Source: Candidatus Omnitrophota bacterium
Lineage (GTDB): Bacteria > Omnitrophota > Gorgyraeia > Duberdicusellales > 4484-171
Assembly: GCA_016935525.1 (NCBI GenBank)
Contig: JAFGQU010000012.1
Coordinates: 1,248-65,247 of the forward strand
DNA: 64,000 nt
Direction: 5' to 3'
This document shows positions 43,779 to 47,762 of the stretch, in pieces (the stretch's first letter is position 1; every line of letters starts with the position of its first letter). Below the pieces are notes generated by a model that made no database searches, had not been told where the DNA came from, and saw only the letters and a program-made list of their open reading frames with translations. The position numbers and the translations under genes are program-made.

Positions 43779-46700
43779 TTAATAACCGAGCTCATCGAGT
43801 TTCGCTAAAATAGATCTGGCATCGGAAAAAGGTCCCGGCGGGACATAGGCGTTCGTATTATTTGCCCAATTCAGAAAAGATTCAACATTGATCCGTATTT
43901 CCTCTCTATGCCATTCGGTCAATCCGGAAAGATCGATTGTCTGATCGACATCATACATCGCTCTTTGGAAGTTATCGGTCGTATACCCGCCTTCTACGAT
44001 CCAGTCGACCGGTTCTTGATCGTCATATTTCCGGAAAAGCCCTAGACTGGTGATATCGTCACCGTCAGGTGGTCCGGATGTTATGTTTATCGGGTTGATT
44101 CCATTATCCGGCCAATTGTTCCAACCTTCTCCCATAAATATCATTGCCGGTTCTCCGTCGGGAGTATAGTCGACAAATATGAAGTGATCTAAAGGTAAAT
44201 TAGGTCCTTCCCAGCCGGGAGGCATGAACCCGTTATCGCCTCCTATTCTTACTCTGAACCGGCCGTTAGGCCCGGTGACATTAGGGAAGTAAAGACTGAA
44301 ATCGTCAATCATGCTTCCGTTTCCTTCGTCAAAAGCGAACCAGCAGTTTGCGCAAGTTACATTCATGTCAGGTGTGACTCCATGATAATCTAATATCTGT
44401 GCGTATTCTGCCGCATTGACATCAAATATCCCGTCAGTAGTCACAATCCGGACATATTCCGCCGAACCGGTAGTAGGTTTCCCGGTGATCATACTGAATA
44501 TACTTTTCCCCATGCTTTGTTGATTTATGCCATGCGCTACGATCCAGGGGTTCTGTACCTCAGGATGAGCTTCAAGAAAAGCGGGTAACATCTCAAGAGT
44601 AATTACAGGGTCACGTCCGACTGCGGCCATATGGGCTGCGGACAATACTACTTCTGGATCGGTGATGTCTGCGATGACGAATACTCTATCAACATACCGG
44701 CCTTCAAACGCATCTGCGTTTACGATCTTAGCTACTAAAGCTAAATCGACCTTATTATTTGATCCGCTTAATGTGGTAGCCGCATAGTCAACCCTATTAA
44801 AATGATTCATCGAGGGGATAAAGTCATCGGCAAATCTCGAAAGGTCGTCCATAGAGATAACTGGTTCTCCGTATCCATCAGGAAGGTCGAGAGGAATACC
44901 GTTTACGGAAAGGAACCACGCTTCCAGTCCCGGTCCCAGTTCGGCAAAAGCGATTTGCGTAAGATCTCCGGATTGAGCGCCTTGGTATGCTCCATAAAGA
45001 TCGGCAATGGTCAGGGCTCCTAAGATCGCCCGGCGTGATATCGGGTTCTGCATGGCAGCTTGTACAGCGCTTATTTCAAAGAAACCGGTCGTTGCCACGT
45101 TGATCGATGAAGCGATATAGGTTGAACACCATAACGGCAGTTCGCCTAAAGTGATTTCGCCGGCAAGTACCGGCGATAATATCTCGCCGCCTACGGCAAC
45201 ACCGGCTTCTATCGCTCCTTTTATGACTACTCCGGTAACGGCTGCGCCTCCGATTGCGTTGATAGTCCCGAAAAACATATCCATCGGATCACTGCCGGGA
45301 CGACTGGCCAGATCTGCCAGATGTACTACCGCACCATGATCGAAAATCCCGCCGTGGAGAAAATCCAGGCCTATCTCGTCGGCTAAATACCCAATACCGC
45401 CGGGAATGAAACTGACTATCCCGTCGAGAAAAGCTATTGCTCTTTCTGTCGTGGTCCCGTCACCGAACCCGCCCATAGCGAATTGGAAACATCCTTTGAT
45501 ATGTTCAGGATAAGGTAACGCACCGCTGGCAAGATGTTCATATTGAGGATCGTCACGATATTCGTCCGGTATGGCATTGATGATATCGTCCATCATATTA
45601 AGAGAGTTCATGACCGCTCCAGGATCGAGCGTAAGCATGATCGCAAGGTCTATATCGCTGCTGTTTTGGTTGATATAGTTAGACATCTCTTCGAAAAGCT
45701 GGTCGTCGAGCACGTCGGAGGAGACCTGCGCGGCGATTGCAGGGAATACTTCGTTGGCCATATATGTATTCACCGTTTCGGCGTCGAACCATTCGCTGAC
45801 GGTGATATTATCAATGTTGATATCTGGGTTTATTGCTAATGTGCCGATATGTTGAGTCCCGTCTTCGGCCGTTACTACCCCGACCATTGCTTCTCCGGGA
45901 CGAATAAATAGTGAAGAGAAATTATCGGCATTGACGGTTTGGGTCTGTATCGTGTCGTTTTGTCCCATGGTAGTTATCTGGACGTCTTCGTTTCCCCCGG
46001 TGAATGAATAATCGAACGTGCCGACACCGGCAACAAATTCGTCAGGAAGATAATCGTTGACAAATACGTCGTCAGCATTTTTCATGATACCGGCTATCGT
46101 ATTGCCGTGCACGTTATCAGTAAGGATTAAGGCTACTCCCGATTCGGGATCGTAAGCGGATACGGTCGATGTCTCATCGATGATACCGTTGGCAAATCCT
46201 TCTAACGGATCGTAGATTGTTCCGGGATGGGCGGTAAGACCGGGACCGGTTTCTTCAAGGTCTACATCGATTATCCCGTCTTCTACCGCGGTAGTCATGC
46301 CCATGACGATATTCGCGCTGATTGTGCCGTCGTTGATTCCTGTCTCGACGTCTGACCAGGAAATCTCAATAAGACCGGTATGAGTTGTTCCGTCATAAGG
46401 GTCGACATATTCTCCCCATGCGACCGGTTCGGATCCGTTCAGGTCGATGGTAAAAAAGTTCACTTCTGTTGGGTTTTGTTCCGGTTCCCACTCTTCACCC
46501 ATTGAACCGGCAAGCCAGGCATCGTCCATATTACTGTCGACACCGGCTTCATCTAATCCCCAGAGTTGCCACCAATCCGCCGCACCTTCATAGAATATCT
46601 CAATATCCGGTTCTTGATCGAATACGTAAGGTTGACTGGGGAAATCCGATGCCGGTACATCCATATCTAGATCGGGGCTACTCTGGATGAAATGGAGTTC

Positions 46701-47762
46701 CATTTCTGCGGTAACAGGATTATATCTGCCTACAGGGATAGCGGGACTGTTCTGATCGTGCGGAAATACCGTTACGAGTTCGCCGGCATTCAATGCATCT
46801 TCATCGTCATTCATGGTCTGTGATTCAGGGTTATAAGAATAACTGGTGGTATCGTTGTCTATTGTGGTAAAAGCGTCTATGGGTAGAGGGTATGCTTCCA
46901 TTACAGAATTATCGATCTCGAATCCGTAATCGGGAAAAAACTGGTCGAGTTCATCGACTTGTGTTTGCCATTCGGGAACGGCTGCGATTGCGTCATTAAT
47001 CGGTACTAATACACTTTCGCCGTCTTCGGTCTGACCCATGACGAATTGTTCTTGTGATTCGCTATCGGTTACGACCATAGGAGTAAATGTTACTTCGGCT
47101 GTTCTTGGAGCGCCGAATCCTGTACCACCGTAGATCTGATCAATTTGGCCGTTATCTAAAGTGTAGAGAGAAGAAGAATCTATAGTGACCGATTGTGTTT
47201 CCTGATTTGTTGTCGGGTCAGTCAAAAAGTCTATTATTTCCTGATCGTAACTTTCATCAACACAGTATTCAGAAGAAATTGTCTGAGGGCCGAAAGGAGA
47301 ATCAGTTCCGTTGTCGTTTAAAAAGATGGTAGTAATACCAGTAATATTCACCATGTCGGGAGTAAGAGTAAATGAGGGAGCAGTATTAGTTATTTGAGGT
47401 AATACAATCTCAATCATATAAGAAGTTTCTACCTGTCCTACAAAAGGCGGTGCTGCAGGAGGAAGATCTTGAGGATCGTCTGAGGGGGAAGGTTGAGATG
47501 CCGGCTGTAAATTAACTTCACCGGTTTGAGCTTGTTCCTGGGGACTGAACGTATAGGGGGTGTCGTACCAATAATAAGTGATTTCTTCCGGGAATACTTC
47601 TTCAGGGGTCGGAGGAGGAAGCGTCCAATCATCGGCGCTGCCGGCGTCTCCGGGCATCGTCGTATCCGGGTCCTCCCACGGTATATAAGAATATGCTGCC
47701 ATCGGGGAAAGAATGAGCCCGATAATGATCAAAATCGATACTATGGAAGACTTGTATTTCAT
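43779..47762 (-). CDS. Very large acidic secreted protein (1327 aa from MKYKSS; D/E/T/G-rich, no Cys in the first ~1100 aa)
   Basis: Signal peptide MKYKSSIVSILIIIGLILSPMAAYS; low-complexity acidic N-terminal ~120 aa (PPPTPEE, SQPSPSDDPQDLPPAAPP); the only Cys pair is near the C-terminus (NVTCANCWF) after WIVAHG. Confidence 0.55.
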   Translation of the reverse strand: MKYKSSIVSILIIIGLILSPMAAYSYIPWEDPDTTMPGDAGSADDWTLPPPTPEEVFPEEITYYWYDTPYTFSPQEQAQTGEVNLQPASQPSPSDDPQDLPPAAPPFVGQVETSYMIEIVLPQITNTAPSFTLTPDMVNITGITTIFLNDNGTDSPFGPQTISSEYCVDESYDQEIIDFLTDPTTNQETQSVTIDSSSLYTLDNGQIDQIYGGTGFGAPRTAEVTFTPMVVTDSESQEQFVMGQTEDGESVLVPINDAIAAVPEWQTQVDELDQFFPDYGFEIDNSVMEAYPLPIDAFTTIDNDTTSYSYNPESQTMNDDEDALNAGELVTVFPHDQNSPAIPVGRYNPVTAEMELHFIQSSPDLDMDVPASDFPSQPYVFDQEPDIEIFYEGAADWWQLWGLDEAGVDSNMDDAWLAGSMGEEWEPEQNPTEVNFFTIDLNGSEPVAWGEYVDPYDGTTHTGLIEISWSDVETGINDGTISANIVMGMTTAVEDGIIDVDLEETGPGLTAHPGTIYDPLEGFANGIIDETSTVSAYDPESGVALILTDNVHGNTIAGIMKNADDVFVNDYLPDEFVAGVGTFDYSFTGGNEDVQITTMGQNDTIQTQTVNADNFSSLFIRPGEAMVGVVTAEDGTQHIGTLAINPDINIDNITVSEWFDAETVNTYMANEVFPAIAAQVSSDVLDDQLFEEMSNYINQNSSDIDLAIMLTLDPGAVMNSLNMMDDIINAIPDEYRDDPQYEHLASGALPYPEHIKGCFQFAMGGFGDGTTTERAIAFLDGIVSFIPGGIGYLADEIGLDFLHGGIFDHGAVVHLADLASRPGSDPMDMFFGTINAIGGAAVTGVVIKGAIEAGVAVGGEILSPVLAGEITLGELPLWCSTYIASSINVATTGFFEISAVQAAMQNPISRRAILGALTIADLYGAYQGAQSGDLTQIAFAELGPGLEAWFLSVNGIPLDLPDGYGEPVISMDDLSRFADDFIPSMNHFNRVDYAATTLSGSNNKVDLALVAKIVNADAFEGRYVDRVFVIADITDPEVVLSAAHMAAVGRDPVITLEMLPAFLEAHPEVQNPWIVAHGINQQSMGKSIFSMITGKPTTGSAEYVRIVTTDGIFDVNAAEYAQILDYHGVTPDMNVTCANCWFAFDEGNGSMIDDFSLYFPNVTGPNGRFRVRIGGDNGFMPPGWEGPNLPLDHFIFVDYTPDGEPAMIFMGEGWNNWPDNGINPINITSGPPDGDDITSLGLFRKYDDQEPVDWIVEGGYTTDNFQRAMYDVDQTIDLSGLTEWHREEIRINVESFLNWANNTNAYVPPGPFSDARSILAKLDELGY

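Follow-up and report, generated by a model that had tools for sequence, protein, structure and literature searches.

A 64,000-nucleotide stretch of contig JAFGQU010000012.1 from a Candidatus Omnitrophota bacterium (hereafter the window) carries on its minus strand a gene for a large protein that we refer to as the orphan. A preliminary description of this DNA had presented the gene as the largest open reading frame (ORF) of the window, and the ORF list agrees: the runner-up, an AcrB homologue, has 1054 residues. The gene and the elements that delimit it are the following.

43779-47762, minus strand: coding sequence of the orphan, 1327 amino acids, from the ORF list and its translation (stop codon at 43779-43781)
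47767-47775, minus strand: Shine-Dalgarno sequence AAAGGAGGA, read from the sequence, 4 nt upstream of the ATG at 47762
43705-43750, minus strand: intrinsic terminator, a 12-bp G+C-rich hairpin followed by UUUUCGUUUUAUUUUU (U-run), beginning 28 nt past the stop codon

The ORF has two candidate starts, a TTG at 47813 and the ATG at 47762. Inspection of the sequence upstream of the TTG revealed no comparable Shine-Dalgarno, and since AAAGGAGGA precedes only the ATG, the latter is the likely start. A 9-bp hairpin that can be drawn over the start codon proved no more stable than its shuffled counterparts (z = -0.55) and was dropped. The terminator, evaluated by a terminator scan and RNA folding, has a folding energy of -25.5 kcal/mol (z = -4.2), and none of 200 shuffled sequences was equally stable. 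The next gene is convergent, so the orphan gene is monocistronic. Its GC content by codon position (0.559, 0.407 and 0.456) is like that of other genes in the window, and a frame of 3984 nt that stays open at 47% GC lies far beyond chance. The identical gene with the same neighbours is found both in the NCBI contig of the metagenome-assembled genome (117 kb, JXD21_03535) and in an independent Logan assembly of SRR13394437, which makes misassembly unlikely. The orphan ORF is a genuine gene, equipped with a ribosome-binding site and an intrinsic terminator of its own.

The neighbours of the gene have housekeeping functions. On the upstream side lie the genes for SmpB, tRNA-Lys, tRNA-Leu, RtcB, seryl-tRNA synthetase (SerRS) and a 195-residue membrane protein whose gene overlaps the SerRS stop codon. 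The orphan gene follows on the strand opposite to the membrane-protein gene and sits before tRNA-Ser(UGA), beyond which a hybrid histidine kinase, an M48 peptidase, MsrA and an Rrf2 regulator are encoded. The two borders of the slot are as follows.

42931-43518, plus strand: 195-residue membrane protein, conserved left border of the slot (tblastn; no Pfam family)
48432-48520, plus strand: tRNA-Ser(UGA), conserved right border of the slot (ARAGORN, Rfam and synteny)

Syntenic loci were collected by a SerRS protein scan with one genome retained per species, which yielded about 35 Omnitrophota loci. The closest SerRS among them is only 71% identical, indicating that the lineage is poorly sampled. 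The block tRNA-Lys...RtcB-SerRS-membrane protein-tRNA-Ser is kept across these loci, and the multi-pass membrane protein (35-48% identity by tblastn in about 30 species) is encoded directly after SerRS, overlapping its end in several cases. The membrane protein follows SerRS in nearly all loci (L002-L037, L072 and L082), and the anticodon of the tRNA-Ser that comes next varies between GCU, UGA and GGA; the conserved linkage of RtcB, SerRS, membrane protein and tRNA-Ser may have a functional meaning. Between the membrane-protein gene and tRNA-Ser lie 10-2000 bp in the relatives, as opposed to 4914 bp in the window, where the orphan gene fills the space. In the relatives the gap contains nothing or a single small plus-strand gene that varies with the lineage, encoding a GIY-YIG nuclease, a response regulator, a TPR/GDSL protein or unknown lipoprotein-like proteins. 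A metagenome scan for closer relatives with the membrane protein as query returned a single locus (41% identity) with the usual 30-bp gap. No tblastn or phmmer similarity to the orphan was found in any syntenic locus. Since the block is conserved in the relatives and similarity to the orphan is lacking there, synteny identifies the gene as a lineage-specific insertion into a variable slot of an otherwise conserved Omnitrophota block.

Searches for relatives of the protein itself were equally negative. Pfam-A and NCBIfam gave no credible match to the full-length protein, and neither did Pfam-A when searched with eight sub-segments at E ≤ 10 (noise such as vWF_A at E 0.054). Scans of sub-segments against PHROGs at permissive thresholds produced noise, the best hits across the sub-segment family scans including a Phd-like antitoxin at E 0.029, and four different queries against PDB sequences yielded noise only (best hit cytochrome cL, E 0.07). 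A word-indexed search of 5.8 billion clusters returned the orphan itself and nothing else, both with the full-length protein and with residues 131-960 at E ≤ 10; residues 961-1327 gave no match, a weak negative because the parent protein itself was missed. In an exhaustive phmmer search without prefilter, residues 128-1327 were compared with 1.84 billion representatives of about 15 billion proteins, and only the query was recovered. Against 50,697 phage records tblastn gave no match to the orphan, pattern scans of contigs from JGI metagenomes and from IMG/VR brought up no relative, and when every ORF of the window and of the fetched loci (1.2 Mb) was searched with phmmer --max, no paralogue or similarity emerged. 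To judge from these searches, the orphan is a singleton without a detectable sequence relative in the collections searched. The preliminary description had named, as what would refute it, a predicted structure lacking a protease fold together with homologues that are ubiquitous core proteins of the lineage; no homologue was found in any of these collections.

The orphan also stands out in its choice of codons. Under window codon frequencies its log-likelihood lies 9.5 standard deviations below expectation, compared with -1.4 to +3.0 for three other long genes. Third-position G is 0.164, versus 0.285 in the window, GTG, TTG, CCG and GCG are avoided, and AGA makes up 45% of its Arg codons, compared with 8%. 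GC content (0.47-0.50) is like that of the rest of the window, and the strand-symmetric tetranucleotide signature lies about 1.5 standard deviations from the mean. Thus, of the comparisons of GC and codon usage with the genome that had been suggested, codons are atypical (z = -9.5) and GC is not. Because synteny is interrupted and synonymous codon usage is unlike that of the rest of the window, the gene entered or arose in this lineage only, with horizontal acquisition from an unsampled source being most likely. The earlier suggestion of an acquired segment is therefore probably correct, in view of the synteny break relative to about 30 Omnitrophota species and the atypical codons.

The most abundant residues of the orphan protein are Asp (9.5%), Gly (8.6%), Ile (7.9%), Ala (7.8%), Thr (7.5%) and Pro (7.0%). 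It contains 212 Asp+Glu (D+E) and 33 Lys+Arg (K+R) residues, only 11 of them Lys, which results in a net charge of about -179 and an isoelectric point (pI) of 4.05. The D+E content of 16% is an ordinary value for this genome, whilst K+R amounts to 2.5%, compared with about 12% across the 47 other genes of the window. The acidity that the preliminary description had recognized is thus real, and its cause, which had been overlooked, is the near absence of Lys and Arg rather than an excess of acidic residues. The depletion peaks in residues 26-760, where 6 K+R face 137 D+E. Among 204 ORFs of at least 300 residues from the window and the syntenic loci of about 30 other Omnitrophota, the orphan alone combines K+R below 3% with D+E of 16%; the remaining low-K/R ORFs of this set are membrane proteins that are poor in acidic residues too. 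Other exported proteins of the organism are likewise acidic (pI 4.3-5.7). A halophile origin of the acidity was rejected, as the cytoplasmic proteins of the window are neutral or basic and the encoded proteome is not halophile-like. Cysteine is rare, with five residues at 167, 758, 879, 1137 and 1140, so that the earlier statement of a protein free of Cys until its C-terminal region is roughly true, yet three cysteines precede the C-terminal pair.

The protein was divided into regions from its composition, Kyte-Doolittle hydropathy and secondary structure in low-confidence AlphaFold2 (AF2) models. AF2 was run on single sequences because no alignment was possible, and confidence is given as the predicted local distance difference test (pLDDT).

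47688-47762, minus strand: signal-peptide-like N-terminus, residues 1-25 (sequence and Kyte-Doolittle)
47418-47687, minus strand: linker rich in Pro, Asp, Glu and Gln, residues 26-115 (composition)
45798-47417, minus strand: polyanionic body, residues 116-655 (composition, 100 D+E and 4 K+R)
44883-45797, minus strand: predicted helical region, residues 656-960 (Kyte-Doolittle and low-confidence AF2)
44013-44882, minus strand: predicted mixed alpha/beta region, residues 961-1250 (sequence; AF2 pLDDT about 30-40)
43782-44012, minus strand: C-terminal tail, residues 1251-1327 (AF2 secondary structure, best local pLDDT about 50)

The N-terminus reads MKYK, SSIVSILIIIGLILS (a hydrophobic core of 15 residues) and PMAAYS, with P20 and with A-Y-S at positions -3 to -1. 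Judged by rule from the sequence, it has the features of a Sec signal, namely a positive n-region, a hydrophobic h-region and small residues at -3 and -1, and cleavage would be expected after S25. The organism is diderm, with genes for TolC-like and AcrB proteins. The linker has 18 Pro (20%), 17 D+E and no K+R in 90 residues, and is disordered-like on a charge-hydropathy plot. A signal peptide followed by a Pro/acidic linker had been proposed before, and the hydrophobic core and the K/R-free stretch of residues 26-115 agree with it. The polyanionic body is probably beta-rich, with hairpins and coil predominating in the low-confidence AF2 model, and falls on the Uversky boundary between folded and unfolded proteins (H 0.472 against a boundary of 0.477). 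Within the helical region, for which neither Pfam nor PDB sequences gave a match, residues 761-960 are hydrophobic and rich in Gly and Ala (31 Gly), with marginal transmembrane (TM)-like segments at 775-793 and 829-857; this module had been overlooked in the preliminary description. The C-terminal tail is probably helical and shows by eye no LPXTG, PEP-CTERM or beta-barrel signature. Taken together, these features show the orphan to be a large, extraordinarily anionic protein that is predicted to be exported.

Such a protein could have a purely structural role in the envelope, as an S-layer-like component or a polyanionic surface 'brush' devoid of enzymatic activity. In favour of this are its size, its acidity, its paucity of Cys and its predicted export, as well as a single-gene arrangement with an extended upstream region, and the acidity of the organism's other exported proteins fits this picture. 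Envelope scaffolds, however, are usually conserved within a family, whereas the orphan is absent from all relatives; its codon usage is atypical and not that of a highly expressed gene; and Pfam and NCBIfam searches found no SLH domain or other anchoring or adhesion domain such as Big, cadherin, FN3 or dockerin. We regard a structural envelope role as quite unlikely.

The Asp- and Gly-rich composition had previously been compared with Ca-binding beta-roll or beta-helix proteins on account of many DxD, DG and NG turns. The counts of these motifs are those expected by chance from composition: 9 DxD against 11.7 expected, 11 DG against 10.9 and 9 NG against 6.1. GGxGxD, GxGxD, DxDxDG and EF-loop motifs do not occur in the orphan protein, and no internal repeat rose above the shuffled null in a self-BLAST or in a Smith-Waterman scan of 90-residue segments. 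With no repeats and with motifs at composition expectation, we reject the resemblance. The corresponding functional proposal, an RTX or beta-roll-type Ca-binding adhesin, draws on the acidic, Gly/Asp-rich composition only, and is refuted at the motif level by the lack of a single GGxGxD nonapeptide, the lack of internal repeats and Asp/Gly motifs at expectation. RTX proteins have a C-terminal type I secretion signal, whereas the orphan bears a signal-peptide-like sequence at its N-terminus, and it is extremely improbable that the orphan belongs to this class.

The predicted alpha/beta region, residues 961-1250, has the highest K+R content anywhere in the orphan protein (about 5%) and carries VAHG (H1077), a CxxC pair formed by C1137 and C1140 (NVTCANCWFAF), LDHFIFVDY (H1193) and GWNNWPD (D1219). 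If the protein has a catalytic or redox site, this region is, with low confidence, where it would most likely lie, because it holds the only paired cysteines of a nearly Cys-free exported protein and is the most ordinary-looking part of it. The preliminary description had pointed to a hydrophobic strand followed by HG and a later one followed by Cys in this part of the protein. Both motifs exist, as PWIVAHGINQQS at residues 1072-1083 and DMNVTCANCWFAF at residues 1132-1144, and H1077 (WIVAHG, 1073-1078) is separated by 60 residues from C1137 (MNVTC, 1133-1137). In a secreted clan-CD cysteine protease of the caspase, gingipain, CPD or CHAT type, the dyad would consist of these two residues, each located at the end of a beta-strand. 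The order of His and Cys, each after a hydrophobic stretch, is compatible with this, the low-confidence model has strands before both residues, and a pattern of three hydrophobic residues-HG, 25-75 residues, and three hydrophobic/T/N residues-C arose in only 13 of 5000 composition-preserving shuffles, although this pattern had been drawn up after the motif was seen. With 60 residues, the spacing is at the long end for clan CD. Pfam gave no match to C14, C13, C25, C11, C80 or CHAT, even for the isolated segment at E ≤ 10, the PDB searches matched no solved structure and no peptidase by sequence, and there are no homologues in which conservation of the dyad could show. The same cysteine has, in addition, at least three other motif-level look-alikes. 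On balance, a clan-CD protease appears highly improbable.

The other look-alikes concern the same few residues. NCWFAF resembles papain CGSCWAF and transglutaminase 2 GQCWVFA, and strand-CxxC-helix at C1137/C1140 resembles DsbA and thioredoxin, both of which we take to be leads only. A cytochrome c reading was discarded: the CxxCH of cytochrome cL aligned with CANCW at a non-significant E of 0.07, and CANCW is not a haem site because the required His is missing. As one stretch of 10 residues can be read in four ways, inspection of motifs cannot decide the type of site.

The papain-like reading can be extended to the whole protein as a toxin- or effector-like molecule, in which an N-terminal binding region and the membrane-inserting helical module 761-960 would be followed by a papain/transglutaminase-like Cys-His-Asp domain. 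C1140, H1193 and D1219 occur in this order with spacings of 53 and 26 residues, in secondary structure taken from low-confidence AF2, and the order and spacings resemble the transglutaminase core and NlpC/CHAP-type enzymes, again a lead. A hydrophobic Gly/Ala-rich helical stretch is present, and the phylum has been suggested to live as predators or parasites (PMC10066038). Pfam, in contrast, shows no match to Transglut_core, Peptidase_C1, NLPC_P60, CHAP or similar families, the DEGNG after C1140 would interrupt the helix expected of papain-like folds, and the AF2 model is unusable. Hallmarks of polymorphic toxins are also lacking, in that no immunity-like gene follows in an operon, the terminator being succeeded by a convergent gene, and Pfam finds no trafficking or pre-toxin domain. 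An effector of this architecture is unlikely in our view.

The single-sequence AF2 models gave a mean pLDDT of 34.9 for residues 740-1327 and 31.9 for residues 100-760, with no residue above 70. Foldseek with the model of residues 740-1327 returned random targets with template-modelling scores (query-normalised) of at most 0.12, which were disregarded. Together with the singleton status, the half of the protein that lies at or below the foldability boundary and the atypical codon usage, the failure of AF2 to find anything foldable would fit a young or decaying ORF devoid of function, either a recently acquired fragment or a non-genic frame open by chance. Low confidence of single-sequence AF2 is, however, usual when no alignment is available, a frame of this length and GC content cannot be chance, and the canonical Shine-Dalgarno, signal sequence, domain-like segments and strong terminator speak for a working gene. 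It is very unlikely that the orphan is functionless.

The DNA on both sides of the gene is repeat-dense.

43519-43704, no strand: left flank, heptamer array CGTAACG (43525-43555) and short modules shared with 34695, 23085 and 32550
47776-48431, no strand: right flank and upstream region, palindrome (47988-48028) and dispersed modules

The modules of the right flank lie at 48114-48166 (similar to 40078-40131), 48259-48285 and 48328-48363, and 48156-48246 matches 32932-33021 with 91-93% identity; on the left, 43524-43556 recurs at 34695-34727. The palindrome is near-perfect, with 18-nt arms CTAATGTTACAAATGAGG and CCTTTTTTGTAACATTAG around a 5-nt spacer, and is situated about 230-265 nt upstream of the orphan start, where it is a candidate for an operator or a terminator. 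On either side of the gene, the flank is a mosaic of modules found in other intergenic regions of the window. Since the same classes occur in spacers window-wide, the repeats are not gene-specific boundaries: the repeat-dense flanks reported earlier are there on both sides, and are a general property of spacers rather than special to this gene.

Directly behind the stop codon of a plus-strand gene, many spacers of the window open with a degenerate tandem array (period 7, occasionally 8; 3-5 copies), whose units vary by site (AGACCAG, CACGTCA, CGTAACG, TAGTCTC and others). Arrays are located at 4018-4082, 17127-17232, 19736-19812, 24606-24636, 26086-26162, 29538-29568, 32541-32575, 34696-34726, 39502-39533, 41592-41624, 43525-43555 and 56020-56056. 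A 1.4-kb stretch at 32539-33971 (GC 0.38) contains no ORF of at least 150 residues and several dispersed modules, including an 83-nt element of which 48156-48238 is another copy with 93% identity. A TylF-type O-methyltransferase gene (36340-37182, Pfam E 3e-108) is placed in a cassette-like manner between modules of about 250 nt (35845-36094 and 37280-37531) in direct orientation, which are up to 95% identical and each internally palindromic. Rfam scanned over the window brought only five tRNAs to the gathering score. A second large exported protein of 882 residues (8485-11133, plus strand), with a signal-peptide-like N-terminus and a pI of 4.8, has no Pfam family and no similarity to the orphan.

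The gene had also been tied to an att-like duplication at tRNA-Ser. The 15-nt 3' end of tRNA-Ser(UGA) is indeed exactly duplicated, at 48508-48522 and 48620-48634, 112 bp apart, and a terminator-like hairpin comes after either copy (48530-48553 and 48625-48686). These repeats enclose only 112 bp on the 3' side of the tRNA, whereas the gene lies on the 5' side, and the association does not hold. The homologous tRNA of relatives has, directly on its 3' side, a gene for a tyrosine integrase (L005, 13115-14143) or for a large serine recombinase (L017, 5589-7061), and the duplication is probably the scar of a different integration and excision event.

As a whole, we tentatively interpret the orphan, with somewhat less than even confidence, as a cation-dependent protein, extracellular or placed on the cell surface, by which a host-dependent nanobacterium would interact with other cells or surfaces. 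Once the protein is exported and its signal cleaved off, the flexible Pro/acidic linker would carry a polyanionic, beta-rich region of about 540 residues which, being at the edge of foldability, probably needs divalent cations or high ionic strength to fold and would serve in binding or spacing at the cell surface. The Gly/Ala-rich helical module 761-960 may anchor the protein in the membrane or insert into a target membrane, and the C-terminal alpha/beta region, with its CxxC pair and several His, would provide the candidate catalytic or redox site.

Several observations weigh against this interpretation and the acquisition that goes with it. No domain, homologue, confident fold or operon partner was found that would indicate a function. 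No Ca-binding motif is enriched in the orphan protein, and the suggested cation dependence derives from charge. The TM-like segments are marginal (Kyte-Doolittle 1.5-1.7) and have acidic rather than basic flanks. With regard to acquisition, GC content and tetranucleotide signature are only mildly unusual, no integrase or transposase was seen among the neighbouring genes scanned, and no bracketing direct repeat marks the insertion. Part of the codon bias is explained by position on the lagging strand, as the window has a strongly positive GC skew and only two of its genes, the orphan gene included, are on the minus strand; a residual foreign-like bias remains, because the other minus-strand gene has a third-position G of 0.239.

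A bolder version would make the orphan the founder of an unseen family of effectors exported by host-dependent nanobacteria, combining a Lys/Arg-free polyanionic targeting region with a membrane-inserting Gly/Ala-rich helical module and a new thiol-dependent domain, and acquired from an unsampled donor, for instance an Omnitrophota virus or mobile element, into the slot by tRNA-Ser. We consider this improbable. If a new thiol enzyme or membrane-active module were to be borne out, it would represent a new type of effector for the interaction of Omnitrophota with other cells. At present, the orphan appears mainly as a well-documented singleton: nothing yet points to a new mechanism, and the specific protease claim has no profile match behind it. 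Long and clearly real orphan genes are nevertheless uncommon, and this one is a clean example of protein 'dark matter' from an uncultured, probably host-dependent phylum, combining the lack of any relative in about 15 billion proteins with extreme charge and a precisely defined insertion site.

Compared with known systems, the orphan resembles tRNA-linked islands in that it adjoins tRNA-Ser, an integration hot spot in relatives, next to a 15-nt duplication, and has atypical codons; it differs in lying on the 5' side of the tRNA, with no integrase in the scanned neighbours and no bracketing repeat. With acidic cation-dependent exoproteins, such as RTX proteins and surface proteins of halophiles, it shares a very low pI, few Cys and a region at the folding boundary, but it has no repeats, its signal is N-terminal and the proteome of the window is not halophile-like. 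With clan-CD peptidases (C14, C25, C13, the MARTX/TcdB CPD C80, and CHAT) it shares secretion, a probable alpha/beta region and the order His-Gly...Cys after hydrophobic stretches, and it departs from them in the absence of a profile match and in a spacing longer than in most members. The likeness to papain/transglutaminase-like enzymes (clan CA; Transglut_core, NlpC/P60, CHAP) is one of motifs, and comprises NCWFAF, a D-H in a hydrophobic strand 53 residues later and a G-W..D a further 26 residues on; here too a profile match is missing, and a break probably occurs in the helix that follows the Cys.

A further parallel concerns the large and poorly annotated ORFs for exported proteins in Omnitrophota, Patescibacteria and Nanohaloarchaeota. 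For those of Omnitrophota and other ultra-small symbionts, roles as adhesins or pore-formers in host attachment have been proposed (Seymour et al. 2023, PMC10066038; West-Roberts et al. 2023, bioRxiv 10.1101/2023.11.21.568195), with which our reading of the orphan broadly agrees, and architectures with a signal peptide and TM segments are common among long proteins of the phylum (bioRxiv 10.64898/2026.06.07.730766). Keyword searches of the text of these three reports, which for 'acidic' covered two of them, returned no instance of extreme Lys/Arg depletion. The orphan is 10-100 times smaller than those ORFs, has no SecA-like, C39, dockerin, glycosyl-hydrolase or adhesion domain and shows no sequence similarity to them. 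Like them, it has an N-terminal signal, long domain-free stretches and hydrophobic helices past a large exported region, and it comes from the same phylum as the Omnitrophota examples.

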